From the IMG/VR virus record IMGVR_UViG_3300021387_000463, positions 171,001 to 235,000 of that record: 64,000 nt of DNA; one strand, given 5' to 3'. The DNA is from a virus (lineage: Duplodnaviria > Heunggongvirae > Uroviricota > Caudoviricetes). The notes beneath the pieces were generated by a model. That model was not told the origin of the DNA and searched no databases. It worked only from the letters and a program-made list of their open reading frames with translations. Shown one piece after another: positions 44,203-61,253 of this stretch. The position numbers and the translations under genes are program-made. Positions within the stretch are counted from its first letter, which is position 1; each line of letters starts with the position of its first letter.

Positions 44203-44206
44203 AAAT

Positions 44207-45285: not shown

Positions 45286-45373
45286 TTCCCCACCACATTT
45301 TTCTACGAAAAAATTTGGTAGATTTAAAATAATTTCGTATATTTACATCAAGAAACAATTAAAGATTAGAGAT

Positions 45374-45541
45374 ATGGCAAGGAAATATGCGTATTACGTA
45401 TCCGTTGTGGACGGAGAGGATTCAGAGACATTTGAGCGTTATAGGGATGCTTTTACCCATTATATGAGAGGTGATGCACCTAAGACCCTTTGGGGAGTGA
45501 GTGAGGATGATGATTATTCAGTAATATTTTCAGAGGAATGA
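45374..45541 (+). CDS. Small hypothetical protein
   Basis: ATG 45374 after promoter 45338. Confidence 0.7.
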   Translation: MARKYAYYVSVVDGEDSETFERYRDAFTHYMRGDAPKTLWGVSEDDDYSVIFSEE

Positions 45542-45930
45542 AGAAGTTATTTAGTTTGCTTATAATGGCATTTGCTTTGTCTCTAACGGCTTGTAATGCC
45601 AAAGGTAATAAGTTAGAGGGTAAGTATCTTACAGAGGAATACAATACACAAGATGGCGATGGAATGACCCAAGTGACTTACACCTTTACTAATGATTCAC
45701 TCTACATTGATGCCTATCCAAGTGGTTGCGGAATCACGGCACTTTCATTGGAGTGGTACTCTGATAAGAGTTGCACGGCAACAGAGACCATAACCGACAT
45801 CAATGGCGATGGCAAAGAGGTGGCATATATAAGGATATACCATATATCTTTTGTACCATGCGAGTGGGGTAAAAATGAGTTTGCAGTATTCCGAGACTAC
45901 AAGGTTGTTGATATAATTAAGAAATTTTAA
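45538..45930 (+). CDS. Putative lipoprotein
   Basis: MKKLFSLLIMAFALSLTAC lipobox. Confidence 0.7.
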   Translation: MKKLFSLLIMAFALSLTACNAKGNKLEGKYLTEEYNTQDGDGMTQVTYTFTNDSLYIDAYPSGCGITALSLEWYSDKSCTATETITDINGDGKEVAYIRIYHISFVPCEWGKNEFAVFRDYKVVDIIKKF

Positions 45931-46004
45931 CGAGGTAACTTTGGTTATCTCGTTTTTTTTTAATATCTTTGCCAAAGTAATAAACTAATAAATTAATAGT
46001 AAAA

Positions 46005-46352
46005 ATGGCAGAGAACGAAAGTAAAGTTTGGGAAAAACTATGCGGTAAAAAGATTGGTACTGAGAAACTTTCGATAGAGGGTTTTAAGAATCAGATACCA
46101 TTTGAGATTTACGATGGCTATGCTTATTGTGAGAACTATAAGGGTCACAGGTATGATATGGAATATCCTACCCTCAAAGCGGTTAGGGAGAGTGAAGAAA
46201 TGGCTAATACCATTTTAAATTATATCAATAAGATTAGTGATAAAAAACTTGAATCAGTTGATGAAATTGGTGTTATCCATTGTTTGATTACATTTAACAC
46301 CTTGAAACGTGATGGCGTTGAGATTGTACCTAAAACAAAAGAGGCTGCATAA
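46005..46352 (+). CDS. Hypothetical protein
   Basis: Own promoter. Confidence 0.75.
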   Translation: MAENESKVWEKLCGKKIGTEKLSIEGFKNQIPFEIYDGYAYCENYKGHRYDMEYPTLKAVRESEEMANTILNYINKISDKKLESVDEIGVIHCLITFNTLKRDGVEIVPKTKEAA

Positions 46353-46354
46353 TT

Positions 46355-46528
46355 ATGGGAAAATTTAAGATACAACTTAACTATAACGCTTCGTATGTCA
46401 CCGAAGTGGATGCGAAGGATGAAGGTGAGGCTTATGATAAGGCTCGTAATAGAGCAGAAGAAGCCGATATTAAAGAGTTCGTGATTTGTGGTGAACGTGA
46501 ATCACTAATACTTAGTAGGGAAGACTAA
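46355..46528 (+). CDS. Small hypothetical protein (57 aa)
   Basis: Y...VDAKDE.EA...A pattern. Confidence 0.65.
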   Translation: MGKFKIQLNYNASYVTEVDAKDEGEAYDKARNRAEEADIKEFVICGERESLILSRED

Positions 46529-46572
46529 CGTTCATATAGTTTTTTTTTATTGTTTTATATTAGTTGTTCCAT

Positions 46573-46605
46573 GTGGGCTGGGAAGTAATTCTCAGCCCAT
46601 TTTTT
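46573..46605 (+). terminator. Rho-independent terminator, GTAA loop
   Basis: tgggctgggaa-gtaa-ttctcagccca-tttttt. Confidence 0.85.
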
Positions 46606-46707
46606 GTTAAAAAGGGTTAATATCCCAGAGATTTTCCACAATTTCCTTTGTCAATTCAAAATAATTTCGTATCTTTGCACCATCAAACAAATAAGGAAGA
46701 TTAAGTT

Positions 46708-47163
46708 ATGGTAGAAGCAAAGTTAAGAGTTGAAATGACCGAAACAAGAAATGGGAGCAAAAACCCTTTCTATGGTAATACTATGGTGAAAAAGGTAGTT
46801 GAGGACATTCTCTACCATGATACCGATAAGAGAGAAGATATTGCTCCTTGTGGAGTTTATGCCACCATTGGTATTAGGGGCAAAATAACATTGGGAGAGG
46901 GTGATACGTCCTTAGAGACGCTGAATGTATTTGACATCAAAATCAATAGGTATTATTTCGATAGAGAGGGTGATGGCGGTTACATTGCATATTTCACCAT
47001 TGAGGAAAAAACCTATGAAGTATGGGTGCGTTTTGAGGATAAACACCTTATGGAAATAACTCTTTCAGAATGGCTGCAAAGTTCATATTTTGAAGATGGT
47101 GACAATGCAGATAACGTTTACCATGTGTGTGATTTCACAACAATATCTGAACTCATCTGTTAA
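46708..47163 (+). CDS. Hypothetical protein
   Basis: Own promoter. Confidence 0.75.
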   Translation: MVEAKLRVEMTETRNGSKNPFYGNTMVKKVVEDILYHDTDKREDIAPCGVYATIGIRGKITLGEGDTSLETLNVFDIKINRYYFDREGDGGYIAYFTIEEKTYEVWVRFEDKHLMEITLSEWLQSSYFEDGDNADNVYHVCDFTTISELIC

Positions 47164-47274
47164 AAAGGGTTAAAAGACCAGATAAAATTTGGCCAGTTCA
47201 AAATAATTTCGTATCTTTGCATCACAAAAGAAAACAACATTATTAATAACATTAATTTATAGGAGATTAAAAAA

Positions 47275-47829
47275 ATGACAAAAGAAGTAAAGAAAGTAAC
47301 AATTGATGCACGTGTTCGTGCAATCGCTAAGAGTGGTAGCGGTAAGGGTGTAGGTATGCCAAATTGGTTTACGCTTCCGCAGAATAAGGAGAAACGTGCG
47401 CTGCATATCGACATCTGCAAAAAACTCGCAGAGTTGTCAGAGAAACACGACAACTATCCTATCACCTACCTTGTGTATTTCGCTGTGGGCAAGAACGCAC
47501 ATCGTCTTTGCACCTTCCTCGGTGGCTACGACAAGATTGACGAGAAGAAGGCCGAGACTATCTTCAAGTGGCTCACTCTCTTCGCAAAGCACCACAAGAA
47601 CGAAAAGTTGTTCAAGAATCCCAACGTGGCTCATGCTCTTTGTCGCTTCTACGACAAGTACAGCACCAAGACCAAGGATTTCAAGGATGCTTTGGAGAAG
47701 ATGGAGAAGAACCCCAAGATTGACGTGAAGAACGCTAAGATGGCAGTCGAAGGGTTGGGCATCGCCAAAAAGGTGGAAGAGACTGCTCCAGCAGAGGAAA
47801 TGGAAATGGCTATGGCTGCTGCCGAGTAA
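47275..47829 (+). CDS. Hypothetical protein, probably highly expressed
   Basis: Own promoter and SD; C-ending codons (TTC, AAC, ATC, TAC) strongly preferred. Confidence 0.85.
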   Translation: MTKEVKKVTIDARVRAIAKSGSGKGVGMPNWFTLPQNKEKRALHIDICKKLAELSEKHDNYPITYLVYFAVGKNAHRLCTFLGGYDKIDEKKAETIFKWLTLFAKHHKNEKLFKNPNVAHALCRFYDKYSTKTKDFKDALEKMEKNPKIDVKNAKMAVEGLGIAKKVEETAPAEEMEMAMAAAE

Positions 47830-47840
47830 GACAAAGGTTA

Positions 47841-47863
47841 GGTGGGGTGAAATAATCCCCACC
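47841..47863 (+). terminator. Hairpin after 47275 gene
   Basis: ggtgggg-tgaaataat-ccccacc. Confidence 0.6.
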
Positions 47864-47949
47864 ATTCCTTAACAAATCTTAAAAAATGCCGAAATATTTG
47901 GTCAATCCAAAATAATTTCGTATCTTTGCACCGTTAAAGCAAAAGAGTT

Positions 47950-48168
47950 ATGGATACATACGAAACAGAAAGTGGTTACATTGTAACTGAGACCCTTGGC
48001 GGTTTGGAAGTCACAGAGGACGATAGAGTTATTTGCACACTCGATGGCAAGACCCTTGAAGACTATTGTGACGAGGACGAAAACATTGACGATGATGCGC
48101 TTGAAGCAGACATCCGTGAGGGTGAAGAAGTAGAAGATTTCTTAGCCTATCAGAATGAATACTGCTAA
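47950..48168 (+). CDS. Small hyper-acidic protein
   Basis: YCDEDENIDDDALEADIREGEEVEDF; own promoter. Confidence 0.8.
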   Translation: MDTYETESGYIVTETLGGLEVTEDDRVICTLDGKTLEDYCDEDENIDDDALEADIREGEEVEDFLAYQNEYC

Positions 48169-48280
48169 CGAATGTTAATGAGTGCAAATTTCTACAAAAA
48201 AAATTGGTAGTTTCAAGAAATTTTCGTATCTTTGCATCGTGAAACAATAACAAAGTATTAATTAATAAAAGTAAAGCAAA

Positions 48281-48460
48281 ATGAGTAGCGCACAGAAACG
48301 TCTGAATAAGGCGATTAAGAACAACCGAGTGGTAGCAATCCCCTCGAAGAAGCGTAAGGACTATATGGTTGACGAGAATGGTCAGCAGATGTATGACCCC
48401 AAGACCAATGAGCCAATGGTCAAGGAAACGCAACTTTATAAGATTAAGAAAATGAACTAA
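48281..48460 (+). CDS. Small basic protein (59 aa)
   Basis: MSSAQKRLNKAIKNNR...; own promoter; missed by the ORF track. Confidence 0.75.
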   Translation: MSSAQKRLNKAIKNNRVVAIPSKKRKDYMVDENGQQMYDPKTNEPMVKETQLYKIKKMN

Positions 48461-48655
48461 CGGCTTCCGATTTGGGGCAAAGGTGGTAAGCGATTTGCGC
48501 TGTGTATAGGTCAGGAGATAGTCCGCACCTCCACCACCCCACTGCCGTTTCTTAGGTAGGGATAAAACAAACTATAGTGAATGGGAATGTGCTACGTGCC
48601 GCTTCGTGCTTGCACCTACAAGCCAACCCAATATTGGGGAAACCCTACCTAATTT
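48460..48655 (+). ncRNA. Structured 3' trailer, two closed stem domains
   Basis: acggc/gccgt, tgggg/cccca, ggtgg/ccacc; ttaggtaggg/ccctacctaa. Confidence 0.5.
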
Positions 48656-48729
48656 TCTCAAAGGTTAAACGAAGTTAAAACACCGAAAAAATTTGGTCAG
48701 TTCAAAAAAATTTCGTACCTTTGCATCAG

Positions 48730-49502
48730 AATTAGTAACGAGGGTTGCGATACCCTCACCTAAAAAGAAAGAAATAATGGAAAGACCTCCGCCCAGTTAA
48801 AGGGCTATAGTTATGTCGTTAATGTAAAGGTTAGAATAATAAGGTTGAGGGAGTGACCTTGAAAAACCCTACAAAGAAGTTATGATTAGAGACCGACCCT
48901 AAGTAAAGAATATATTTACCGCCTCTACCCATGTCAATGTGCATGGCTTGGCAAGGTCATTCGACCAAAAACGAAAACTTTAAGCCCCCTAAACGCTTAT
49001 GTTCCGCCCCCAATCCGCACCAATATGATAGAGTGCCGATGTCATTGGGCGAGTTTATCTGCCGATTATACGCTGCCAAACTGCCAAAAGGCTGCGATTC
49101 ACGGCTGTCCGTTAGAAGCGTTAGGGACTTGTTAGAACGATGGAAGTTAAGCCAGTATAAGCCACTGCCCCCCAAAACGTGCGCACATATCTGAGGGGCG
49201 TGCCAAAAGGTTATAAATCGTTCATTTTATTAACATGATGGGGCATTTGGGACGCGACAACTAAGTGATTATAAGCCGAGCGTTGTTCACGCCACCGTCG
49301 CCCTCAAAAGATAAGTTGTGTAATCAACCCTACTCACAGCGACTATGACGTTAATCGTTTGCGGTGTTGCCATAGTATGCTACTAAAGGTGTGAGAAACA
49401 AGTGAGGTGGATTCGATGCGCCCTAAGTGGGGATGCCGAACTGCGCTGCATTAAGTTGCACTCGCCTTTGCCATCATGGACTTTGGACGTGTCCCACCTC
49501 AC
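48730..49502 (+). ncRNA. Candidate large structured ncRNA (~770 nt)
   Basis: Own promoter (48716), no credible long ORF, raised GC, many stems including 49402-49410/49494-49502; ends at a tRNA-like element. Confidence 0.65.
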
Positions 49503-49510
49503 ATTTTTAA

Positions 49511-49582
49511 GCCTCAGCTAGCTCAGTTGGTAGAGCACTACGTTTGACGTAGGGGTCGTTGGTTCGAGTCCAACAAGGGGCA
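49511..49582 (+). tRNA. Degenerate tRNA-like element (short anticodon loop, broken acceptor base)
   Basis: Canonical D arm and T arm; anticodon arm CTACG-TTTGA-CGTAG; only 5 acceptor pairs. Confidence 0.7.
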
Positions 49583-49653
49583 CAAAAATGCTCGTTTTGC
49601 GTTGTGGTAACGCTCTTTGTTTTCCATAATTTGAATTGTTAGGTTTTTAGTTA

Positions 49654-49695
49654 GATGGGGTGATGTCGTGAGACATTTCCCCATTTGTATTTTTT
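49654..49695 (+). terminator. Rho-independent terminator, GTGA loop
   Basis: atggggtgatgtc-gtga-gacatttccccat-ttgtatttttt. Confidence 0.75.
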
Positions 49696-49769
49696 AACAT
49701 AAAATTTTTGGTAGATTCGTTATTTTTTCGTATCTTTGCATTGTCAAAACAAATAAAGCATTAAAGATT

Positions 49770-50087
49770 ATGAGTACAATTTTAGGAGTTCAGAGAACAA
49801 AGTTGGATAACTGCGAGGTAGTATCTTGTGGTTTGACAAAGGAGCAGCACGACATTGCAGCGGAAATGGTTAAGGATGACCCATTTTGGCTTATGCGGTA
49901 TGACTTTGAAAAGGTTGATACTGAAATGGCAAACGTATGGATTGCTGACGCATTTAGTGAGGGCAATGAGGAATATGCTCATTTCTTGCAGAAAGCCATT
50001 GCTGATGGTGCAGACCTTTACACTATGACTGATGGTTTTGGAGATTTTAAACAACCACTTGGTGAGGTAGCGATTTATTTTGATTAA
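49770..50087 (+). CDS. Hypothetical acidic protein
   Basis: Own promoter. Confidence 0.8.
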   Translation: MSTILGVQRTKLDNCEVVSCGLTKEQHDIAAEMVKDDPFWLMRYDFEKVDTEMANVWIADAFSEGNEEYAHFLQKAIADGADLYTMTDGFGDFKQPLGEVAIYFD

Positions 50088-50102
50088 AAAGGAGGTAGGA
50101 CT

Positions 50103-50393
50103 ATGGAATACGATGCATACGATTTTTTTGAAGCAGTCAAGCACTACGGAGAACTTGGTCACGATGAAATAATGGAGATAACCAATGATGAAGAAATCAT
50201 TATTGACGGAAAAATAGTAGATAGTATTCTCGATGATGATGGATTGAAGTACTCATACATTGGTGATGATGGGTGTGCATATTCAAGACATCTTGATATA
50301 GACAAGATTAACGAAGAAATTTGTGATAAGATTTATGAGTTTCTTTGTGATAATCGTAACGAGAATCTTGATTTCTTCAACGGATTGGGTTAA
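50103..50393 (+). CDS. Hypothetical acidic protein
   Basis: Strong SD AAAGGAGGT at 50088. Confidence 0.8.
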   Translation: MEYDAYDFFEAVKHYGELGHDEIMEITNDEEIIIDGKIVDSILDDDGLKYSYIGDDGCAYSRHLDIDKINEEICDKIYEFLCDNRNENLDFFNGLG

Positions 50394-50466
50394 AAATGTT
50401 AAAAAGTTTGGTGGTGTGAAAATAATTTTGTATCTTTGCACCATCAAACATTAAATAAGGAGAATT

Positions 50467-51273
50467 ATGGCAGAATTAAACTTAGTTGAGAAAGCAAATA
50501 AAGTTATTACGTTCCGTAAGTATATTCGTGAAGAGTGTCGCAAAAAGGGACTTGAATACCCATCAGATGCGAAGATTTCTGAGTATATCAATAAAAAGTA
50601 TGGCATGAATGTGGACGATTTCATGAAAGACTACACCAAACATGAGGGTATCTTCCGTGACCCATTCGAGGATTTCAAGGCTGAGATTATCAACAAGTTT
50701 GAATGGGGTGACAACAAGCCAACAGATGATGAAATACGTGATTTTCTCGTTAGTAGTGGATATGACATTAATGGTTTTGTACGCCAGCACTCAATCAATA
50801 GTCATGCTCCATTGGAGAAAGAAGTTCTCGTTTCCACTATTAATAACTTAGAGCCATTTCAGCTTGTTCAGTTGTGGAACAAGTTCATTGAGGAAAGCGC
50901 AATGTATGGGGCAGATTCCCACATCTATGACCTCAATGATAGAGAGGACTTGAATATGCTCCGCAGAAACATGACCCCAGCAGATTGGGCAAAGGTGGTA
51001 GTCTTAAGGGGTCGTTATGTTCAGTGGTTTAACCTCAACGATGGTAAGATACAGAAAGTCGATGAAGATGACATCAGAGGTGTAATTATTGCCTATTGGT
51101 ACGACATCTTCCCTCGCTTATTGGCATGGAGTGAGTGCTACGAAAAGATTGGAAAAGGTACAGAGGGAGAAATGTTCTATTTTGACTACATTGTACGTCC
51201 TATCTTCTGTAAGTATCTTGGGTATAACTATGACCCATCAAAGGGAACAATCAAAGAAATCAAAAAGGACTAA
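50467..51273 (+). CDS. Hypothetical protein
   Basis: Own promoter and SD; internal repeat P.D..I..Y/F. Confidence 0.85.
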   Translation: MAELNLVEKANKVITFRKYIREECRKKGLEYPSDAKISEYINKKYGMNVDDFMKDYTKHEGIFRDPFEDFKAEIINKFEWGDNKPTDDEIRDFLVSSGYDINGFVRQHSINSHAPLEKEVLVSTINNLEPFQLVQLWNKFIEESAMYGADSHIYDLNDREDLNMLRRNMTPADWAKVVVLRGRYVQWFNLNDGKIQKVDEDDIRGVIIAYWYDIFPRLLAWSECYEKIGKGTEGEMFYFDYIVRPIFCKYLGYNYDPSKGTIKEIKKD

Positions 51274-51542
51274 GTTATGTTTGGATTATTCATTTTATTC
51301 TGCATAGGTGTTATGATGTGGGACATTGCAAGTGACCCACACTACACCACCAAAATGAAAGAATTGGAAGAGGATTAACTATGTTATATGTCATTCCTAA
51401 TTATCGTAATATGTTTATCCCTACGTTCTATGACCCATTTGGCAGTCCTATATTTACTCCAAAGCATAGAAAACTAAAGGGGTATCAGAAAAAACATCGT
51501 TAAAAATTTGGAATTGTCGATATTTATTTATATCTTTGCAAT

Positions 51543-51830
51543 ATGAGTACAATAGGACAGAATTATAAACAAGCAATAAATAACAACTTTAGGCACTGCA
51601 CAATTAAGCGTGATGCGGAAAGTGTTTTCAATGCTCTTAATATCAGTATTAAGGGTAGTGATAATATGTCCATACTTCCAAAGGTCGAAAAGGTTGAATT
51701 AACCACTATTGATGATTTGCATGACAAGTTATCATTATCATGGGACGATTATAAGACCGAGGGGGTAGTTACATGGAGACCATCCGACAACAAGATTTCA
51801 AAGGAAATGGTTTTTTGTGGTATTGAATAA
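51543..51830 (+). CDS. Hypothetical protein
   Basis: Near-leaderless after promoter 51531. Confidence 0.7.
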   Translation: MSTIGQNYKQAINNNFRHCTIKRDAESVFNALNISIKGSDNMSILPKVEKVELTTIDDLHDKLSLSWDDYKTEGVVTWRPSDNKISKEMVFCGIE

Positions 51831-51878
51831 ATTGTGGTATCGTAATTAAATTTAACAAATTTTTCATTTTTAATTTTT

Positions 51879-51918
51879 CCCTTCTCAAGTCGTGAGATTT
51901 CGGAAGGGCTTTTTTTTT
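51879..51918 (+). terminator. Rho-independent terminator, GTGA loop
   Basis: cccttc..gtc-gtga-gat..gaaggg-c-T run. Confidence 0.7.
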
Positions 51919-51923
51919 TATAT

Positions 51924-52017
51924 GGGCGAGTGTTGCAACTAGGTTAGACAAGTTGGTCTTAAAAACCAATGGGCATAAAAGTAAGTCCTATGGAGGGTTC
52001 GAGTCCCCCCTCGCTCA
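51924..52017 (+). tRNA. tRNA-Leu(TAA)
   Basis: Acceptor GGGCGAG/CTCGCTC, A73, D stem TTG/CAA, anticodon loop CTTAAAA, long variable arm, T loop TTCGAGT; CCA not encoded. Confidence 0.9.
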
Positions 52018-52146
52018 CACTTTAATCTCCTTTACCAAGTGGGAAATGTTAAAGATTGTTATAATCCAGACATTTCTCACTAATTTTTTTGGTAGATTCA
52101 TTATTTTTTCGTATCTTTGCATCACAATTAAAAAGGAGATTATATT

Positions 52147-52392
52147 ATGAGAGTTTATCAAGAGGATATTATCAATGCTATCTATAGTAGAAAGACTTGG
52201 GGTGGCAGTAACGTGGTCGTAAGGACAGAGAACAACGTCACAGAGGTTTTCTTCTATGGCAATAGAATTGCAGTTATTGACCACAACACTAAGAACGCAA
52301 CGTTTGACAACTGCGGTTACAACAATGCAGCAACAACGGCACGTATCAACGCTTGTAAGATGTATTGTGACAATTATGGTTACACCTATTAA
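52147..52392 (+). CDS. Hypothetical protein
   Basis: V.FYGNRIA....GY...TT.ARINA; own promoter and SD. Confidence 0.8.
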   Translation: MRVYQEDIINAIYSRKTWGGSNVVVRTENNVTEVFFYGNRIAVIDHNTKNATFDNCGYNNAATTARINACKMYCDNYGYTY

Positions 52393-52405
52393 ATAGATTC
52401 AAGTT

Positions 52406-52852
52406 ATGGTATTTGAAGATAATAAAGAGTTATACGAGAAACAACAGAATTTACTCGCTGAACTGCGTAAGTTGGTAGGTAGGGGATTTGATTTCTCCGA
52501 AGCCTATATGAAGCAGTGTGACAACGATTGCAACCGCATAGGAGAGCAAGAAATCCGATATGGTAGGATTACCAAGAAGTATGTGTATATCGGTTGTAGA
52601 GCGATTTATACGACCAATGACGAGATTACAGAGTATGGCGCAAGGATTCTTAAGTATTCTGTCTGCACAAGGCAAGGAGAGACAAATAAGATAGCCTTAG
52701 AGGACTTGTTTGTCTGTGACCTCGAAAAGATTCTCCATGACATCGAGTTTGCCCTTTGGTGGGAGAAAGATGTGAGAATGAAGAAACTGCAAACGGAAAT
52801 GGCAGATTGCCAGAAATATGTGACTTTATTTGATAAGTTCTTGAAAAAATAA
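52406..52852 (+). CDS. Hypothetical protein
   Basis: Intact ORF. Confidence 0.75.
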   Translation: MVFEDNKELYEKQQNLLAELRKLVGRGFDFSEAYMKQCDNDCNRIGEQEIRYGRITKKYVYIGCRAIYTTNDEITEYGARILKYSVCTRQGETNKIALEDLFVCDLEKILHDIEFALWWEKDVRMKKLQTEMADCQKYVTLFDKFLKK

Positions 52853-52876
52853 ATAGATTCATTATATTTATAATAT

Positions 52877-52912
52877 ATCCAAGGGAAATTGAGGGATTCC
52901 CTTGGATTTTTT
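52877..52912 (+). terminator. Rho-independent terminator
   Basis: atccaagggaa-attgaggga-ttcccttggat-ttttt. Confidence 0.8.
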
Positions 52913-53056
52913 CAAGGAAGAAAAACCTTTTTAAATTGATTGGGTTTGGCTAATTGGGGAGTTAGCCAAACTTTTTTTTAATTTTTTTCTGTTTTTTCTT
53001 GGTTAATTCAAAATAATTTCGTATCTTTGCATCGTAAACAAACAAAGAATAAGATT

Positions 53057-53452
53057 ATGAGTAATTCAAAAGTAAGAAAGCAGTTAGAAGCACAGAGTAA
53101 GAATGAGAAGTTGTTGGAAGCCTACAAGAAAAAGGCTGACCTCATCCTCAACTATCAGATGTGCAAGGCATATTATAAGGATAGTGCCCTTTCTATCCTC
53201 GCCATCGTTGAGAAAATCCTCAAGGCTAAGTATAATCTACCTTGGCAAGAGAAACTCATCCGTAAGGCTCTAAACGAAGCAAGGGGCAAGACAAATGCAA
53301 CAATCGCTATCCCTCAGTTCAAGTATGAGAAGAAAGTGCATGACATTCTCATTGAGTTTGTAGAGAAGCACTTGGACAAGATGGCAAAGGAATCTGCCAC
53401 AAGGGGAGTGTACCCACTTGTATTTGTCGATTTGGTCGAGAAATATTCATAG
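53057..53452 (+). CDS. Hypothetical basic protein
   Basis: ATG 53057 after promoter 53022. Confidence 0.8.
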   Translation: MSNSKVRKQLEAQSKNEKLLEAYKKKADLILNYQMCKAYYKDSALSILAIVEKILKAKYNLPWQEKLIRKALNEARGKTNATIAIPQFKYEKKVHDILIEFVEKHLDKMAKESATRGVYPLVFVDLVEKYS

Positions 53453-53473
53453 TCGTAATCTTTTTGTTTTGAC

Positions 53474-53517
53474 GTGGTGACTAGGTAATCAATCAAAGCC
53501 TAGCCACCACTTTTTTT
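53474..53517 (+). terminator. Rho-independent terminator
   Basis: gtggtgactagg...cctagccaccac-ttttttt. Confidence 0.8.
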
Positions 53518-53597
53518 GTTAAAAACCCTTAAAAAATTTGGCTATGTGCTGGGAATTTCGTATCTTTGCATTGTAAAACAAATAAAGGAGATTAAAT

Positions 53598-54314
53598 ATG
53601 AAATTATCAGAGATTAAAGCAATTGTTACGAATAACTACTCAAAGCAGTATCGTGTTCATGTGATTAATGGTGGCTCTATCGTTGTGCGCCTTTGGAAAA
53701 CAGATGATGGACGTATCGCCATCATGGGTAATAGAAAAAAACGCTACGGACATGAGTTGTCTTTGTGGGACAAGTATGATGAGTGGACAGATTTACGTCT
53801 CGTTGAGCACAAGGAAATTGACTATTACAAGCGTTTCGTTAAACGTGCTAATGATGCACTGAAAATGCTGAATGAGAGTGGTCTTTGGAAAGACATCAAA
53901 GAGAGTATTGAGCATTTCTTCACGCTTTCAGGGGCAGAACAAAGAGAATTGGTAAATGACATCATAACAGATTCTTATGAGTTGTTTTATCACGAAGTTT
54001 ACAAAGAAAATGGAAAGTATTCTTGGGTGCATGGCTATCAAGTGTTTGAAGCCTTTGTGAGAAAGACGTGTTGGAAATCTATTGCTTGGCACAAATGGGA
54101 ACGCAACCGCATGAGTGAAGAAGTTGCTCAGTGCATCAAGAATGGCACAAGTTTTCACAGACGTTGGGAAAATGGCTACGACAATACGGTTGAAGTGGCA
54201 AATCATGATGGTGAGAAATGTGCATGGTATAGTGAGGAGTATAGAAATTGTGGAAATGGCCACTACTACTTAATGTTTGATGCTACTCATGCAATATATT
54301 ATGAGGACGATTAA
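53598..54314 (+). CDS. Hypothetical protein
   Basis: Own promoter and SD; C-terminal AWYSEEYRNCGNGHYYL. Confidence 0.85.
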   Translation: MKLSEIKAIVTNNYSKQYRVHVINGGSIVVRLWKTDDGRIAIMGNRKKRYGHELSLWDKYDEWTDLRLVEHKEIDYYKRFVKRANDALKMLNESGLWKDIKESIEHFFTLSGAEQRELVNDIITDSYELFYHEVYKENGKYSWVHGYQVFEAFVRKTCWKSIAWHKWERNRMSEEVAQCIKNGTSFHRRWENGYDNTVEVANHDGEKCAWYSEEYRNCGNGHYYLMFDATHAIYYEDD

Positions 54315-54397
54315 AAAAAAGGGGAAAAAAAATCCCCTTTTTTCTTTGTAGATTCAAAATAATTTCGTATCTTTGCATCACAAAACAATTAAAGATT

Positions 54398-54796
54398 ATG
54401 GCAGATTTAAAGAGTTTTATTAAGAAGTGGGATGGTCGTACCTTAGAGGATGATGGTTGCTACGTTTCAAAGGAATTTCATTCATTCCAAGTGGCTTTCT
54501 TTAACGCAATGCGTAAGATTGCAGCATCCCTTGGTGGTGAGGTTGTTAACCCTTGCTATGGTCATTATGATATGTGTGGCTTCGTTAAGAGAGGTGACAA
54601 GTATGTGTTCTTTAACTATTCGAATGGTTGTGGTCGTGGTGGCAGAAGTCACGTTGCATTGAAAAACGATGGAAATTGGCTCACTCCAATGTATTGCAGA
54701 ACAGCCAAGCACGATAAGGATTGGACTGGTGGGAGCAATAACAACTGCTACTTTGAAGATTGTGAGAGCGTTATCGAGAGACTATTAAATTCTTGA
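54398..54796 (+). CDS. Hypothetical protein
   Basis: GHYD..GF and YCRTAKH.KDWTGG.N motifs; own promoter. Confidence 0.85.
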   Translation: MADLKSFIKKWDGRTLEDDGCYVSKEFHSFQVAFFNAMRKIAASLGGEVVNPCYGHYDMCGFVKRGDKYVFFNYSNGCGRGGRSHVALKNDGNWLTPMYCRTAKHDKDWTGGSNNNCYFEDCESVIERLLNS

Positions 54797-54979
54797 TTAT
54801 GGCAACATTACATATATATTGGGATGATGATGTAACCGTTGAGTTGCGTTATTTCCCATCAGAAAAGAGTGCAAAGGAATACGCTAAACGCAATGGTGTT
54901 GTAAACTATAACATTGATTGAATTGTTAAAAATGTTAATTGATTTGGTTGAATGAAAAAGATTTCGTATCTTTACATCG

Positions 54980-55515
54980 CTTAAGAGAAATAAACGTGGG
55001 TCAAAATATCATCAAGGTTCTGCGCAGATTGGTGATGGTGGTGTGCGGTTATGCGGAAACCTAAAACTCCATCTTTCCCACATTTTAAGATATAGGGGGA
55101 GAACATTCAGAGGACTTAGGAAATCGGAGTGCCCCAAAGGAGAAATAACCTCGTCTAAGGGTAAGAGTAGGTCGTTTGACATTCCAATGCGCATTTGGAA
55201 GAAGAGGCTGGCTGTGTAGTCAAGTAAGGAAAGTGCAACTCCGCCACTAATTAGTTTCTCCTTTTAAGATATAAGACAAGATTGAGTTGAAAGATGGGGA
55301 TAGGCATCCATCGCAAAGAGGGAATAAGGTTCGCCTACACAAGAAAACAAACCTCCCATGTCTTGCCTTGTTATAGGGTGATTCCCTTGCAAGAGGTGAT
55401 AGATAAGGTAAACAATGGTGTAAAAACCAGAGTAGTTTCACCCTTCAATTTTTATCATTCAAATCTCCTTTCCGACCTCCAAGTGTTAAAAATTGCACTT
55501 GGGGGTTATTTTTTT
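54980..55515 (+). ncRNA. Candidate structured ncRNA (~530 nt)
   Basis: Own promoter (54967) and terminator (55474-55515); no credible ORF; long-range stems; 12-nt direct repeat. Confidence 0.6.
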
Positions 55516-55581
55516 AATAAAAAATTTGGTAGATTCAAAATAATTTCGTATCTTTGCAACACAATTAAAAAAATAAAGATT

Positions 55582-55815
55582 ATGAAGTATTCATTAACAA
55601 TTGAAAAGAGTAATTCAAAGTATTACACTTACAAGAACAACATTCCAACTTGGGATAAGGTTCGTGAGATATTAAGAAGTGGTCTTGACCAGTGGACTAC
55701 TAAGGTTTATATCTATAAGTGGAGTTCAAACGACAGATGTCTTGGGCATGTGTGTGTCACAATGGGCAATCTGTGGAATGTGTTATCATACGGAACTGAT
55801 AAACTGTTAAAATAG
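55582..55815 (+). CDS. Hypothetical protein
   Basis: ATG 55582 after promoter 55549 (the ORF-track start 55294 is over-extended). Confidence 0.75.
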   Translation: MKYSLTIEKSNSKYYTYKNNIPTWDKVREILRSGLDQWTTKVYIYKWSSNDRCLGHVCVTMGNLWNVLSYGTDKLLK

Positions 55816-55893
55816 TGTTAAAGAATCTGGATTGTTTGGTCAATTCAGATTTTTTTCGTATCTTTGCATCAGAAATTAAAAAGATTATAGATT

Positions 55894-56133
55894 ATGGGAA
55901 TATTTTTCAACAATGACAAAAAGAACTACTGCGGAAGATACAAGGGTATTGATGTATGGCAGTATGGTTGCATGATAGGAAATAATTGGTATGGTGATTT
56001 CTACGTTACCATTCCGAGGGGAACAACAAAGCGGAACATGAAAGTTAAGGATAGTGTTTGCCGTTCTCTCGATGCCGTTAAGGGTTATATTGACAGAAAT
56101 TTAGAAACATTGAAAAAGGAGAGCGCAAAATGA
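55894..56133 (+). CDS. Hypothetical protein
   Basis: Own promoter. Confidence 0.75.
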   Translation: MGIFFNNDKKNYCGRYKGIDVWQYGCMIGNNWYGDFYVTIPRGTTKRNMKVKDSVCRSLDAVKGYIDRNLETLKKESAK

Positions 56134-56789
56134 GTATAAGGAGTGGAAAAGAAACAAAGCGTACCCCAATGGAACTTTATAAGGGGTATCGTGTTATCAA
56201 GGTGACGAAAATTGAATATCATCGTTGCCTTTGGGATAATAGCCGATTCGATAAGAATTGGATTGATAGCAAAGAGGTGCATTTCGATTTCTGCAAAGAG
56301 GGTAACGAGAAACTCCCATCGCAAGATTATAACGTGCAAGCAAAGAACGTTGAGGGTTGCAAAGAAGCAATAGATAAGTTCCTCAATGGGGATATATATT
56401 ATACTCATGCGGAATATCAGAAATATGTTAAATCGCCCAATAATAAGTGTGATAATGCCTATGGCTATGATTCTCTTATGAAGTTAATGCGTGAGCACAA
56501 AAAGGCTGATAAGCGTATGAAATGGTTCCTCGAAGAGAGATTGCACGATGCAAATTTCCATTATGACGCTGGATTTCTTTCTGATGGTGATTATGAGGGA
56601 TTTGAGAAGTATGTTACAGAGGAATACCGATTTCATGAGAAGTTTGAGGTATATACCCATACAATGCGCAAAGCTATCAAAGACCCCAAGGCTTTGGAAG
56701 ATGGATTAAATAAGGTGATAAGTGATTACCTTGCAAGTCAAGGAATAAAAGATACATCTGTGGAAGTGAAATTCTGTGAAGAATGGTAA
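56130..56789 (+). CDS. Hypothetical protein
   Basis: Coupled ORF. Confidence 0.8.
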   Translation: MSIRSGKETKRTPMELYKGYRVIKVTKIEYHRCLWDNSRFDKNWIDSKEVHFDFCKEGNEKLPSQDYNVQAKNVEGCKEAIDKFLNGDIYYTHAEYQKYVKSPNNKCDNAYGYDSLMKLMREHKKADKRMKWFLEERLHDANFHYDAGFLSDGDYEGFEKYVTEEYRFHEKFEVYTHTMRKAIKDPKALEDGLNKVISDYLASQGIKDTSVEVKFCEEW

Positions 56790-56833
56790 CTTTAGCACGT
56801 TTCTGTTAAGTTAAGTATGTGAATGTTTGTTTG

Positions 56834-56870
56834 ATTGGGTGGTGTTGAGAAACATCACCCAATTTAGTTT
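56834..56870 (+). terminator. Rho-independent terminator, GAGA loop
   Basis: attgggtggtgtt-gaga-aacatcacccaat. Confidence 0.8.
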
Positions 56871-56952
56871 TATTAACACTTTTTCCTTGGCCAGTTGAAA
56901 ATAATTTCGTATCTTTGCACTAACAAATAACAATTAAAAGGAGATAAAGATT

Positions 56953-57387
56953 ATGGAAGAAATTAAAGTTTGCCCCTATTGTAAAGAGCATGATGTCGTT
57001 AAAAACGGCAAATCATATCATTGCAATTCTTGTGATAGTGATTTTACTGAAAACGATTTTATTCACGAAATCTTACGTCAGAAGATTTCATGCGTTTGCA
57101 GTGGTGAAGAAGCAACAGAAGAAAATCCTATAGACTGCACGATTGGCGGTGAAATGCTCATGATTGAAGACGAAGCACAAGGTCTTTCTACATTGGAAAT
57201 GTCAAGGGTTGTTGGCTTATTCCAAGACTATGAAGGTATTGTATGGGTTAATATTGAAGCGTGTAATGAGCCAATAGAAGTTGATTCATTAGCAACATCT
57301 GATTTACAGACTATTTTTAATTGGCTTGAAGAAAACTATGGTAATGTAGTGGCAACTGACTATTTTTGGGCATATTATAAAAAATAA
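56953..57387 (+). CDS. Hypothetical protein with N-terminal zinc ribbon
   Basis: CPYC...CNSC; own promoter and SD. Confidence 0.8.
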   Translation: MEEIKVCPYCKEHDVVKNGKSYHCNSCDSDFTENDFIHEILRQKISCVCSGEEATEENPIDCTIGGEMLMIEDEAQGLSTLEMSRVVGLFQDYEGIVWVNIEACNEPIEVDSLATSDLQTIFNWLEENYGNVVATDYFWAYYKK

Positions 57388-57391
57388 AATT

Positions 57392-57787
57392 ATGATGTTC
57401 AACAATAAATTTAACAAAGACAACACGATTCACTTTGATGTGGAAGAGTGGGTTTGCACAGATACAGACGAATGCCAGTTCTGCCGTAAGATTAGCGACA
57501 CAGAGTTTGAGTACATTCAGTTAAAGAATGAGGATTTGAAGAAATTCATTGAGACATTCCAGTTGGGCAACAAGCATTTGCTTTCAGTGCTGAATGACCG
57601 CACCACCATTGCTGATTGGTATCAGAGTGAGACAGATGTGAATGATTACGATGCAGATGCAATCGGTGAGTATCTTTCCCCTTATGGTGGTATTCTCGAT
57701 GGTGTGACTGACGAAGCCGAGCGCAATCAGTTAATTGCAGAGTGTATTTTTGAAACTGATGATGTAGCAAACGATTGGTATGAGTAA
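57392..57787 (+). CDS. Hypothetical acidic protein
   Basis: WVCTD.D..QFCR, NQLIAECIFE. Confidence 0.8.
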   Translation: MMFNNKFNKDNTIHFDVEEWVCTDTDECQFCRKISDTEFEYIQLKNEDLKKFIETFQLGNKHLLSVLNDRTTIADWYQSETDVNDYDADAIGEYLSPYGGILDGVTDEAERNQLIAECIFETDDVANDWYE

Positions 57788-58040
57788 GAATGTTAAAGTA
57801 GTCTGTTATGTGGACACTAAGGATAGTACAAAGGGGTGTTTATGCGCTATCCCATCTGATAAGGATGCACGCAAAAGCGATGTTATCCAAAAGGTGGCTG
57901 ATTGCATTGTTGAGAGTGGCATTCTCGCACAATTCTCAAATCATGCCATTGACATTGCAAATGCAGTGTGCCATCATGGTTTTTCCAATATCAATGAATA
58001 TGAGTTTGGTGTTGAGGAAGTTCCATTGATTGAGTGTTAA
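57780..58040 (+). CDS. Hypothetical protein
   Basis: Coupled ORF. Confidence 0.7.
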   Translation: MSKNVKVVCYVDTKDSTKGCLCAIPSDKDARKSDVIQKVADCIVESGILAQFSNHAIDIANAVCHHGFSNINEYEFGVEEVPLIEC

Positions 58041-58112
58041 AAGTGTTAATTCCCTTGGTCAATTCAAGGGAATTTCGTATCTTTGCACCATCAAATAAAA
58101 GGAGATAAAGAT

Positions 58113-58589
58113 ATGGCACATAAGAAGTTTACAAGTAAGAGCATACCTGAGATTGTCTATGAGGTGCAAGATGAATATTGGCTTGGTGATGATACCTACG
58201 TGATTATCTTTCAAGATATGGATGATGCCGATGGTGGCACATTCCGTTTGGAAGTCGAGTACCATAAAGACGAAGAGCGTATCACTTACACAAGGGTGTA
58301 CGATTATAAGAATGTTGAAGCATCCAAGTTAGTTTCTCCGTGCTTTAAAAAGCAGATTGAGGAATATATCTTACAGAAAGTTAGTGTTATCTCTGAGGAC
58401 GAAATGCTCGTTACCAAGGAAATCTCTGTAGAGTTGAAGTTGGTAGTGCCCAAGTCAATGACACTGGGTGAGTTCCAAGAATGGCTAAAGGAGAGTTTCA
58501 TCGAGGTTAATCGCCTTACTCCTACTGATAAGGAGAAATTCTTCAACAAAGTGAAAGTATTAGAAATTAATAATAAAGGTAACAAATAA
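58113..58589 (+). CDS. Hypothetical protein
   Basis: ATG 58113 after promoter and SD. Confidence 0.8.
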   Translation: MAHKKFTSKSIPEIVYEVQDEYWLGDDTYVIIFQDMDDADGGTFRLEVEYHKDEERITYTRVYDYKNVEASKLVSPCFKKQIEEYILQKVSVISEDEMLVTKEISVELKLVVPKSMTLGEFQEWLKESFIEVNRLTPTDKEKFFNKVKVLEINNKGNK

Positions 58590-58590
58590 C

Positions 58591-58869
58591 ATGGCAAAGG
58601 AGTTAGCAAAGATGCGGACAATCCGCACAAAGCAAGTTGAGGTACGCACCTCACTGAAGCATCGAGAGGAAGCAAACAAGTCTCTCCGTGAGAAGATTAC
58701 ACCCATTTGGACTGCTGACAAGGAGAAGAGAACACCTCAGTTGGAAGCACTTACCAAGTTACTCGTTGAGGGTCGTGCAAAGGTGGTTTGCTATCAAATG
58801 GAATTGCATGGCTTGAAGTGTGAACTAAAGGCAACAAATCGTGCTTATGACCTCTCAAAAGGGGAGTAA
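58591..58869 (+). CDS. Coiled-coil hypothetical protein
   Basis: Coupled ORF. Confidence 0.7.
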   Translation: MAKELAKMRTIRTKQVEVRTSLKHREEANKSLREKITPIWTADKEKRTPQLEALTKLLVEGRAKVVCYQMELHGLKCELKATNRAYDLSKGE

Positions 58870-59081
58870 ATGTTAAACATTGTAAATAACTGGAAGAAAT
58901 TGGGTTAATCGTTTGGTTAATCCAATTTTTTTTCGTATCTTTGCATCAACAAATAAAAAGAGATTATGAAGAGATTTAAGATTATCAATGGTAAGAAGCA
59001 CAAGGCAATAGGTTACACCTATGATGGAAAACCAATTGGTTGGATTGCTTGTGGTGAGAACGATTAAAAGAGATTAGAGAT

Positions 59082-59300
59082 ATGGCAAAGTTATTAGATT
59101 TATATGTTGGTGGCGATTGCATAAGTCAGCATCGTAAGTTTGACTGCGCAAAGAAAGCCTTTGATAAAGAGGTTAAGAAGATGCGCAAGAATCCAATTGA
59201 TGAACGCTCAGACATTGACATCATGTTTGAAGACGAGTCTATTTATGCCTATGATGGCGATAACAATGAGGTTTACGATTATACCTATAGATTGAAATAA
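59082..59300 (+). CDS. Hypothetical protein
   Basis: Intact ORF. Confidence 0.7.
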   Translation: MAKLLDLYVGGDCISQHRKFDCAKKAFDKEVKKMRKNPIDERSDIDIMFEDESIYAYDGDNNEVYDYTYRLK

Positions 59301-59301
59301 T

Positions 59302-59526
59302 ATGGCAACAATAGTTAGAATCGGTGAGGGTCGCAGTAAAAGCGGTAAGATACTCGACAGAAATACCAAGTGGTTTACCATCAGTGATAAGGAAGCTTGG
59401 GAAAGATGTGTACATGAGTGGAGTTTAAAGGAGAATAGCGGTAAGCCACTCTTTATCTCTCGCAATGGTCGTGCCTATAAGAAGATTAGTGGCGTAGATT
59501 TAATTAAGCTTAAAGATAAATTATAA
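59302..59526 (+). CDS. Hypothetical protein
   Basis: Coupled ORF. Confidence 0.7.
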   Translation: MATIVRIGEGRSKSGKILDRNTKWFTISDKEAWERCVHEWSLKENSGKPLFISRNGRAYKKISGVDLIKLKDKL

Positions 59527-59527
59527 T

Positions 59528-59818
59528 ATGGAGCAGTGGAGAACTTTATGGTGGAACACTCGTTATGAGGTTTCAAACCTTGGTAGGGTACGCAACAGAA
59601 AGAGTGGTAAGATATTAGCCACAAACCCAACGAAGTCACATAAGAAGCCACAAGTATGGCTTTATACAGACTATTTTAGCACGACATTGCAATATACGCT
59701 TGATAAACTTGTGTATTTCACGTTCAATAATATTTCATCAAGGTCTGAATTAAAACGTGTGTATCATCGTGACGGAGACGTTATGAACTGCAAACTTGAA
59801 AATCTCTATGTAAAATAA
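59528..59818 (+). CDS. NUMOD4 plus degenerate HNH protein
   Basis: EQWR....RYEVSNLGRVR; HRDGDVMNCKLENL; ends right after the HNH-like motif. Confidence 0.75.
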   Translation: MEQWRTLWWNTRYEVSNLGRVRNRKSGKILATNPTKSHKKPQVWLYTDYFSTTLQYTLDKLVYFTFNNISSRSELKRVYHRDGDVMNCKLENLYVK

Positions 59819-59886
59819 TGGAGATTTTTCTTGGCTAATTCAAAAATATTTCGTATCTTTACATTGTTAAAACAAAAAGGGTTAAT

Positions 59887-60153
59887 ATGAAGAAAAAATT
59901 AGAGCAAGAGGTTAAGAAGATTGGCAAGAATCTTAAGCGTGGCGACAGAATAGAGTTGCTATATGATGGCGAGGAAATTGCTCGTTATGACTATTTTGAG
60001 AGGTCTATTGATTGCAAGACACCTTTGCAATGGCTGCGTGGCTGCTTTGTATTTGATATTGACCTTAAGGGTCGTGACATCAGCAAGGTTGCGCTTAAAC
60101 ATAATAAAGCAATCAATCTATCAATTGGTAATTGTGGAATTACTATAATCTAA
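59887..60153 (+). CDS. Hypothetical protein
   Basis: Own promoter. Confidence 0.7.
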   Translation: MKKKLEQEVKKIGKNLKRGDRIELLYDGEEIARYDYFERSIDCKTPLQWLRGCFVFDIDLKGRDISKVALKHNKAINLSIGNCGITII

Positions 60154-60160
60154 AAAGAAT

Positions 60161-60484
60161 ATGGATAAAGAAATTACAATAGGAATTGAGAAACTCATTG
60201 CAATGTTTGTTGTTGCAAAGGGTACTCCGATTGGTGATGGATTCACTTATTTCCCAAAGTTGCCAAAACCATTCAGTAAGAACATAGATTTTCAAAACTC
60301 TTGTGGGTGCAATGCTGATTTATTGTGCCTACGTGTTAACGACCAATTTGATGTTGAGGTATGGTTTGCTGACAAAGATGGTGATACATTCTGTTATGGA
60401 TTGAAAGAAATTCAGAAAAGCCACCCAATGTTGTTTGTGAGTCTGTTCACACATATCTTTGATATGATTGAAAACATTAAATAG
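60161..60484 (+). CDS. Hypothetical protein
   Basis: Intact ORF. Confidence 0.7.
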   Translation: MDKEITIGIEKLIAMFVVAKGTPIGDGFTYFPKLPKPFSKNIDFQNSCGCNADLLCLRVNDQFDVEVWFADKDGDTFCYGLKEIQKSHPMLFVSLFTHIFDMIENIK

Positions 60485-60559
60485 GATTAATTTGTTAAAA
60501 AGTGTAAAAAGTTATGAGAAAATTTTGGATTTAAGAAAAAAGGATATATCTTTGCATTG

Positions 60560-60810
60560 TCAATGAGACGGAAATAAAGTAAGGTTACAAGGTAATCACA
60601 CACCTCCTTTCTGTGATAAAATGGTTTTGCAAATCTAAAGATAACCTTAAAAATTCTCAGCGGAGAATACCTTACTTTCCAAAGATATATTTGAACGATA
60701 CCAGAGGAGAACTATCCGCAAGGGTAGATGTGGACAAATGGGCATTAAGTTCGTGCTTAATGTGTCACTTCGGTGACTTCGGTGATTCAAATTCACCTCG
60801 TTCAACTAAT
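60560..60810 (+). ncRNA. Structured ncRNA with two multi-stem domains and an anti-SD-like loop
   Basis: Own promoter (60547); closing stems 60576-85/60669-78 and 60691-98/60798-805; GCAA and cUUCGg tetraloops. Confidence 0.8.
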
Positions 60811-60890
60811 TAGTAAGTAATTGTAGTAATGGCTTGTACTGCGCTCTGTTCTATAGAGCAACTTGAGCGGTCCGATTCCGTGCTTACTAA
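60811..60890 (+). tRNA. Degenerate tRNA-like element (TCT anticodon, Arg-like)
   Basis: Acceptor TAGTAAG/CTTACTA, anticodon stem GCTCT/AGAGC, T loop TCCGATT, abnormal D arm. Confidence 0.6.
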
Positions 60891-60929
60891 CAATCTAATC
60901 TTTTTAATTGTTACTGATTCTTGTCGCAA

Positions 60930-60970
60930 GGGGTGAAAGCAATTCGGCTTTCACCCCAAAAGTTATTTTT
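60930..60970 (+). terminator. Rho-independent terminator
   Basis: ggggtgaaagc-aattcg-gctttcacccc. Confidence 0.75.
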
Positions 60971-61088
60971 GGCGATAATTGTTGACTTTTTCTTTTATTT
61001 TTGTTAATTTCTACTAATTTTTTTGGTAGATTCAAAATAATTTCGTATCTTTGCACCATCAAACAACAATTAAAAGGAGATTTAGAAT

Positions 61089-61253
61089 ATGGTAGATGAA
61101 TTATTAGACGACGAAAAGGTTTGGGAAAAGTTCACCGAATTTTTCAGATTAGAGAAAGGATATGTCGATTGGACGGACGAAGAAATCGACTTGTCACGTA
61201 ACAACGATGATTTTGTAGAATTTGTCAAGTGGCTTTGTACTGACAACAATTAA
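61089..61253 (+). CDS. Small acidic protein (54 aa)
   Basis: MVDELLDDEKVWEKF...; own promoter and SD. Confidence 0.7.
   Translation: MVDELLDDEKVWEKFTEFFRLEKGYVDWTDEEIDLSRNNDDFVEFVKWLCTDNN

Follow-up and report, generated by a model that had tools for sequence, protein, structure and literature searches.

The analysed window, a 64,000-nt stretch comprising bases 171001-235000 of a 412,753-bp IMG/VR phage record, contains between two open reading frames a 604-nt gap (60485-61088) that houses a noncoding RNA locus. The genome, that of a Bacteroidota phage, also has genes for a TyrRS and a CCA-adding enzyme as well as for ~55 tRNAs, one tmRNA and a GOLLD-like RNA, and the helicase at the end of the window has its nearest relatives in Bacteroides phages at ~40% identity. 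The locus specifies a modular RNA that consists of a scaffold with variable cargo (D1), a second domain (D2), an optional third domain (D3), a single-stranded anti-leader segment and a terminator, with the following features in and around it.

60524-60554, + strand: Bacteroidota-type promoter, with the −33 element TTTG at 60524-60527 and the −7 element TATCTTTG at 60547-60554.
60576-60678, + strand: D1 scaffold with variable insert; 10-bp closing stem and a 3′ hairpin (60653-60668) with an AGCG loop in the MFE fold.
60595-60617, + strand: anti-Shine-Dalgarno (ASD)-mimic hairpin within D1; stem 60595-60600/60612-60617 and 11-nt loop CACCUCCUUUC at 60601-60611.
60692-60806, + strand: D2, a tRNA-Tyr-derived tRNA-like RNA (32-sequence alignment, covariance model R1).
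60811-60891, + strand: D3, an optional non-canonical tRNA-like module; cloverleaf with T-loop UCCGAUU and 7-nt loop GUUCUAU (UCU).
60892-60925, + strand: single-stranded linker with the invariant anti-leader core CUUUUUAAUUGUUACUGAUU, reverse complement of the leader box ACAAUUAAAA(A/G)GAUUA.
60930-60970, + strand: intrinsic-terminator-like hairpin and U-rich tail; 11 bp, loop AAUUCG, 4 covarying pairs in 15 orthologues.
61046-61091, + strand: next promoter and leader bearing a Shine-Dalgarno (SD) element, ACAAUUAAAAGGAGAU ... with AUG at 61089; an example of the predicted target class.
Starts at 41428, 44427, 47212, 50431, 52112, 53561, 56910 and 58078, + strand: eight other SD+ promoter leaders.
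Near 56116, + strand: further SD-like site, from a start-codon scan.

Transcription was predicted to start at ~60559-60560. The −7 element follows TAnnTTTG, a promoter type of Bacteroidota, and the motif TAT[CA]TTTGC had 37 + strand occurrences in the window where shuffles gave 0.6, indicating that the promoter at 60547 is the standard one of this phage. A first-pass annotation had placed a promoter at this position, and both the −33/−7 elements and the motif enrichment bear it out. The same promoter block was found 5′ of the orthologous RNAs, which were gathered as L-numbered loci by pattern scans of related huge phages and metagenomes. The same annotation had described a two-domain, ORF-less transcript of 250 nt, of which the two domains stood but the size did not: the transcript extends over ~410 nt, from 60559 to ~60970, and D3, the linker and the terminator had been absent from the earlier description. 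Its whole-length fold reached −118 kcal/mol (z = −4.6 against shuffles). The absence of coding potential was borne out by the D2 orthologues, whose lengths of 113-118 nt change by steps that are not multiples of three and whose stems carry compensatory substitutions, leaving no credible ORF, while many G·U pairs fix the + strand as the RNA strand.

The Rfam search that had been proposed for this RNA returned nothing at the gathering threshold in the locus (Rfam 15), and at E up to 10 it gave chance-level matches only (Plastid-ycf2, manA-II and S4-Bacteroidia). No match to the 604-nt intergenic region was obtained by blastn against 50,697 phage records, and literature searches turned up no earlier report of an ASD-mimicking phage RNA, nor of tRNA-like units combined with GOLLD. 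As a tmRNA, the locus was called neither by ARAGORN nor by Rfam, which both find the real tmRNA at genome 129249-129604; the conserved 3′ domain of GOLLD (RF02032) had no match in the window; and for a Y RNA/YrlA reading there was no Rfam match and no TROVE domain (Ro60/Rsr) in the 413-kb genome. About 730 nt 5′ of the RNA promoter, a 96-aa ORF (window 59528-59815) matched the NUMOD4/HNH endonuclease region only and is probably a truncated homing-endonuclease remnant; besides this fragment, small ORFs near the locus gave no informative families.

D2 represents a new, tRNA-Tyr-derived family and makes up the conserved core of the locus. Its closing stem (60691-60698/60798-60805) and four enclosed hairpins, already drawn in the first-pass annotation, were upheld by the alignment, in which 95.4% of cells were paired and 22 of 32 pairs were compensatory, a level that none of 500 shuffles equalled. 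The acceptor stem comprises 7 covarying bp with U1-A72 and G2-C71, followed by invariant A73 and C74; the D-arm is expanded by an insertion of ~25 nt in the D-loop; the "anticodon" arm has 7 bp and a 6-nt loop UUCGUG (5-nt GGUAA in others) in place of a 7-nt anticodon loop; the variable arm is long with a UUCG loop; and the T-arm carries the T-loop UUCAAAU or UGCAAAU. Covariation between the equivalents of positions 18 and 55 is perfect across 44 copies, which argues for a tRNA elbow. When compared with phage tRNAs, model R1 scored 39.9 bits against tRNA-Tyr(GUA) (E 3.5e-9) and at most 27 bits against the others, and D2 shares with the phage tRNA-Tyr the U1-A72 and G2-C71 pairs, A73, C74, the D-arm words, the long variable arm and the T-loop. 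The hallmarks of class II tRNA-Tyr are likewise present, namely the D-arm words CCAGAG..GG..AAAUGGG, a variable arm followed by CUUCG, and A73. D2 drew no ARAGORN call and, at E up to 10, no Rfam tRNA (RF00005) match, and a role as a decoding tRNA was rejected on account of the UUCGUG or GGUAA loop that replaces the anticodon loop, so that D2 is tRNA-like only.

The D2 pattern had no match in 185,579 prokaryote species genomes, and the family appears phage-restricted at that pattern stringency. The phage genome holds two tRNA-Tyr genes and at least three anticodon-less D2 RNAs, with two paralogues at genome 130323-130611, and D2 copies are located in tRNA/tmRNA/GOLLD-like arrays. Its TyrRS is full-length (TIGR00234, 380 bits; genome 93894-95180, L322 1423-2709) and its CCA-adding enzyme lies at 164271-164678; the presence of both enzymes alongside the D2 RNAs raises the question of D2 tyrosylation. 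Between the two tRNA-Tyr genes, an unannotated tRNA-like sequence (genome 110600-110695) has a hairpin resembling a GUA anticodon arm at an unusual position, scored 23 bits with the D2 model and received no ARAGORN call. A weak D2-model match (20 bits, E 0.004) at genome 168565-168692, 2.3 kb before the window, has a closing stem TTGGTGGT/ACTACCAA and the word CCAAAGGAGAA, and may be a divergent D2 relative or a chance match within a gene.

D3 has the same 3′ end as D2 (...AAC) and folds into a cloverleaf of which all four arms covary in a 9-sequence alignment, with 8 of 20 pairs compensatory and 96% paired. It contains U33 in its loop (A33 or C33 in orthologues), 4 nt between acceptor and D-stem and a 4-bp T stem, was called neither by ARAGORN nor by the Rfam tRNA model, and is missing in the orthologues L147, L172, L185 and L018. 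Elsewhere in the genome, an RNA array at 129164-131566 (L002 161-2562) comprises a tRNA-Ile, the tmRNA, a promoter, a tRNA(CAU), two tandem D2 paralogues, the GOLLD-like RNA and an intron-containing tRNA-Arg. The tmRNA of this array encodes the tag AENVDSPAYEYAIAA; the GOLLD-like RNA, ~100 kb from the locus, scored 73.6 bits (E 1.8e-18), below the gathering threshold of 150; and phage L008 shares this arrangement, a tRNA lying within the GOLLD-like RNA. ARAGORN also called in the window a 95-nt tRNA-Leu(UAA) (51924-52018) and a 93-nt tRNA-Cys(GCA) (8869-8961), the latter unusually long and perhaps carrying an insertion as in D2 and D3. At genome 134142-134227 and 123167-123294 it called tRNAs whose anticodons read CUA and UCA (labelled Pyl and SeC), and a further two calls have 4-base anticodon loops. 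Such tRNAs could suppress stop codons or act in frameshifting, a hint that part of the genome is recoded.

The pairings reported earlier for D1 (60576-60585/60669-60678, 60589-60593/60644-60648 and ATTCTC-AGCG-GAGAAT) were all recovered in the MFE fold, and the scaffold arms covary (CTTTC/GAAAG, TTCTC/GAGAA and TTTTC/GAAAA) in 37 distinct orthologues. The interior of D1 is swapped wholesale between relatives: 21 of the 37 distinct versions carry a type A insert, which is unrelated to the ASD insert, 6 carry an ASD-type insert and 10 carry others. The window insert consists of the ASD hairpin and a second small hairpin (60623-60635). When the distinct D1 variants were compared by BLAST with 120 Bacteroidota rRNA loci, matches were of chance length only, the ASD excepted.

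Positions 60600-60612 (ACACCTCCTTTCT), corresponding to the closing pair plus the 11-nt loop, match the 13-nt single-stranded 3′ tail of Bacteroidota 16S rRNA at every position. The tail sequence given in the first-pass annotation is correct: CTGGAACACCTCCTTTCT was recovered from at least 120 loci, almost all of them with Bacteroidota titles and including Segatella, Porphyromonas, Alistipes and Bacteroidaceae, and it ended the SSU rRNA in the two loci checked. The mimic covers exactly the single-stranded tail, from the nucleotide after helix 45 through the mature 3′ end. ACACCTCCTTTCT occurred once in the window, where ~0.003 occurrences of the exact 13-mer and 0.11 even allowing one mismatch were expected, and CACCTCCTTTC occurred once in the whole 413-kb genome. 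The loop was predicted to be unpaired with a probability of 0.5-0.9.

ASD-type sequences numbered six in all, five of them close relatives. The loop is identical in four versions (the window, L147, L176 and L185), with a single compensatory stem pair (AU/UA/UG); in L172, CCUUC replaces CCUCC, equivalent to C1538U, with G·U pairing to GGAG retained; and in the divergent L018, ACCUCCUUUCUGU is retained but the stem is not, and the motif is predicted to be paired. Within the insert, the sole long block conserved between the window and L018 is ACCTCCTTTCTGT. The insert is lineage-restricted (6/37 D1 variants), and we regard the ASD hairpin as recent lineage-specific cargo and not as the core of the element. 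An exact scan of IMG/VR for the ASD hairpin gave three unrelated chance matches only, and the looser pattern AYACCTCCTTTCTGT matched more than 110 loci, none informative. The only Rfam match of the hairpin was the S4-Bacteroidia leader (RF03139; 13.7 bits against a gathering threshold of 34.7, E 4.8), which it resembles in being a short hairpin with a UCCU-rich loop; membership was rejected, given the score below gathering and the position of the ASD element, which is not upstream of rpsD.

Other modules of the orthologous loci vary as well. The D1 insert of L184 is a different cargo with AUAAUCUU, complementary to AAGAUUAU(G) at the start codons of nine leaders, which hints that other D1 inserts may also carry seeds against initiation regions. 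Many orthologues (L007, L017, L023, L026, L006 and others) have a conserved hairpin GCGGTGGACAAC ... AAAAACCACC, then UUUU, between D1 and D2, and others have an additional 5′ module GAGACAGAAACAACCACUGAAC... The operon is a mosaic of interchangeable RNA modules.

Among the 24 promoter-proximal leaders at 41428-62531, nine insert AAAGGAG(AT) 7-10 nt before the ATG, whereas the remaining leaders have the same A-rich box without GGAG; over 41428-61091 of the window, the classes read as ACAATTAAAGATTATG-type (SD−) and as the same box with AAAGGAGAT inserted (SD+). The existence of two leader classes suggests differential translational control of a gene subset. SD+ leaders are concentrated in the 20 kb upstream of the locus, and the ASD loop was calculated to form a duplex of −9.3 kcal/mol with an SD+ leader as against −1.3 with an SD− leader. 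However, it pairs with phage leaders over only 7 nt as compared with its 13-nt identity to the 16S tail, and so is not optimised for those leaders. Counts of TTAAAAGGAGA were similar in relatives with other D1 inserts, and the local co-occurrence of ASD insert and SD+ leaders (6/20 vs 8/67) was not significant, the numbers being small and non-independent. Across the genome, GGAG was found in 6% of upstream regions as against 4% in controls, and the phage as a whole is not SD-dependent; most phage genes lack an SD, as expected for a Bacteroidota host.

In Bacteroidia, the ASD is sequestered by bS21, bS18 and bS6 (PMC7797042, PMC9976891). In the F. johnsoniae ribosome, the tail runs extended along the bS6/bS18 groove and its 3′ nucleotide, which is free, stacks on bS6 and bS18; nucleotides A1534 to U1544 contact bS21 (at A1534), bS18 and bS6 (PMC7797042). 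Bacteroidota phages act at this site through a bS21 of their own (PMC9723584), and OLE RNA is a noncoding RNA proposed to sequester bS21 (PMC12286853). No bS21, bS18 or bS6 gene was found in the phage genome. The first-pass annotation had held that SD pairing in Bacteroidota is used mainly on rpsU, which is valid for Flavobacteriia and not for class Bacteroidia, where among 104 genomes an SD was present on rpsR in 66%, on rplI in 82% and on rpsU in 0/104.

The linker contains a further segment complementary to the leaders. Its core CTTTTAATTGTTA[CG]TGATT does not vary among 30 distinct orthologues and stays unpaired in the consensus fold, and its complement, the leader box ACAATTAAAA(A/G)GATTA, lies between phage promoters and start codons. 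Perfect complements to the linker of at least 11 nt (up to 15 nt) were found in 6 of 122 promoter leaders, a count equalled by 1 in 3000 AT-matched genomic 34-mers (empirical p ~3e-4). Against 36 window leaders, the duplex energies of the linker beat 195 of 200 shuffles (5 were as good), and the duplex with the 61046 leader reached −17.6 kcal/mol. The linker is better supported as an anti-leader seed than the ASD loop.

We tentatively propose, while granting that the proposal may well prove wrong, that the RNA is excised by tRNA-processing enzymes and that translation-initiation regions are where its ASD loop and linker base-pair. Cleavage by RNase P and RNase Z at the tRNA-like modules would yield two sRNAs, one from D1 (~130 nt) and one from the 3′ trailer (~80 nt), and both would act in trans by base pairing at translation-initiation regions. 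For the trailer, the partner would be the leader box ACAAUUAAAA(A/G)GAUUA that promoter-proximal phage genes have in common, and for the ASD loop any SD-like element, including the AAAGGAG leaders of ~9 phage genes nearby and possibly SDs on host mRNAs, for instance those of rpsR or rplI, because a loop that is an ASD recognises whatever the ASD would recognise. The loop may thereby compete with, or stand in for, the ribosomal ASD, and its most likely action is to mask SD-like sites. Masking of the AAAGGAG sites of early genes had been raised as an alternative in the first-pass annotation and becomes the favoured one, given the 9/24 leaders, the −9.3 kcal/mol duplex and a linker antisense to the same leaders. 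As would suit a trans-acting anti-SD/anti-leader sRNA, an accessible loop is complementary to nine SD+ leaders, and the same RNA has a second, statistically exceptional anti-leader seed; in addition, sequence rather than stem is kept in L018, and the L172 change is wobble-compatible. Counted against antisense action are the excess of the 13-nt tail identity over the 7-nt leader match, the equal frequency of SD+ leaders in phages without the insert, the few ASD-type sequences, the predicted pairing of the motif in L018, and the use of the same promoter type by the RNA and its putative targets, which clouds the regulatory logic.

Part of what weighs against antisense pairing speaks for a different reading, the main idea of the first-pass annotation, in which the loop, as a decoy of the 16S tail, binds free bS21, bS6:bS18 or the platform groove, so that the real ASD is freed and SD+ phage leaders are recognised. 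The copied stretch coincides exactly with the tail nucleotides in contact with bS21, bS18 and bS6 and exceeds what leader pairing needs, a distinct SD+ leader class is present, and both OLE RNA (PMC12286853) and the phage bS21 acting at the same site (PMC9723584) offer precedents. However, although the copy is exact over 13 nt, its geometry differs: the native tail is extended with a free 3′ end, whereas the hairpin keeps its ends roughly a helix width from each other and has the U1544 equivalent in a base pair. Against a native tail tethered in cis, a trans competitor would also be at a large disadvantage; L172 alters the contact nucleotide C1538; SD+ leaders are equally common in relatives without the ASD insert; and rpsU has no SD in Bacteroidia. 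We consider such a decoy improbable and structurally less likely than antisense pairing, and titration of bS21 or of the ASD pocket drew no support from the analysis. Somewhat more credible, though still unlikely in our judgement, is that the ASD resemblance is incidental and the insert is interchangeable D1 cargo with a structural role, for example kissing with the invariant AGAGGAG of D2, or with an unrelated factor as its partner. The D1 inserts are hypervariable with only 6/37 of the ASD type, the others have no rRNA similarity beyond chance, and pairing of the loop with the D2 junction equals leader pairing at −9.3 kcal/mol. Yet an exact 13-mer match to one functional RNA end has the very low expectation per window given above, with or without a mismatch, the block is kept between divergent versions, and A14 and G15, two D2 purines, should take part in the tRNA-like core.

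MazF-type toxins cleave UCCU-like sites and inactivate ribosomes at the ASD, and the accessibly displayed 16S tail could accordingly serve as a decoy substrate for a host abortive-infection ribonuclease that cuts the ASD, a hypervariable cargo position being the expected product of an arms race. We know of no ASD-cutting abortive-infection system in Bacteroidales, and with no toxin or defence context identified, this purely inferential idea is very improbable. The reverse complement of the motif reads AGAAAGGAGGUG, and a GTG-initiated ORF of 38 codons is listed at 60603-60487, so that the motif might be a minus-strand Shine-Dalgarno; this hardly merits belief and was rejected, as the GTG directly abuts GGAGG without a spacer, the promoter, terminator, G·U pairs and covariation all lie on the + strand, and the orthologous inserts are unrelated in sequence.

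The components of the proposed antisense RNA each resemble known kinds (an sRNA seed, a tRNA-like RNA and a tRNA-linked sRNA), and the RNA that copies the ASD tail, the D2 family and the anti-leader segment have no counterpart in Rfam 15 or in the papers found. RsaE and RNAIII of S. aureus and RoxS of B. subtilis are sRNAs with C/U-rich loops that pair with Shine-Dalgarno regions. Like them, the phage RNA has an unpaired pyrimidine-rich loop complementary to GGAG-type sites, proposed here to act in trans, and a terminator end; unlike them, it is phage-encoded, lies within tRNA-like modules, has a second seed against an A-rich leader box, and has as its loop the entire 13-nt 16S tail of a phylum that normally hides this tail. 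E. coli 3′ETS-leuZ, the murid herpesvirus TMERs and the T4 species 1 and 2 RNAs are released from tRNA transcripts by processing enzymes. The phage RNA shares with these the co-transcription with tRNA(-like) units and the RNase P/RNase Z ends, here predicted, but its D2 units are a conserved anticodon-less family. BMV has a tyrosine-accepting viral tRNA-like structure (TLS), and tmRNA has a tRNA-like domain. D2 resembles these in acceptor/T-arm mimicry, in the elbow, in the lack of a decoding anticodon and in tRNA-Tyr-type identity elements (A73 and the long variable arm), whereas it occurs in a DNA phage, clearly stems from the phage's own tRNA-Tyr and is present in several copies per genome. 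With bS21/bS18/bS6 sequestration and the phage bS21 (PMC7797042, PMC9976891, PMC9723584), the locus shares the RNA sequence and the host phylum, but those systems place proteins on the ribosome, and here an RNA copy of the tail is encoded by a phage that has no bS21, bS18 or bS6 genes.

The D2 RNAs are widespread and strongly covarying, lie beside tRNA, tmRNA and GOLLD-like genes in huge phages that have their own TyrRS, and are absent from Rfam 15. The presence of an invariant anti-leader segment suggests that an entire class of phage genes is under the control of RNA. If a decoy did operate, it would unlock the hidden ASD for SD-dependent translation of the SD+ leaders, amounting to an RNA-based reprogramming of start-site selection. 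Bacteroidota ribosomes hold a canonical yet hidden ASD, and a phage with two leader classes and an RNA copy of the hidden tail provides a compact natural handle on SD-ASD pairing during infection, whether such pairing is switched on or blocked.
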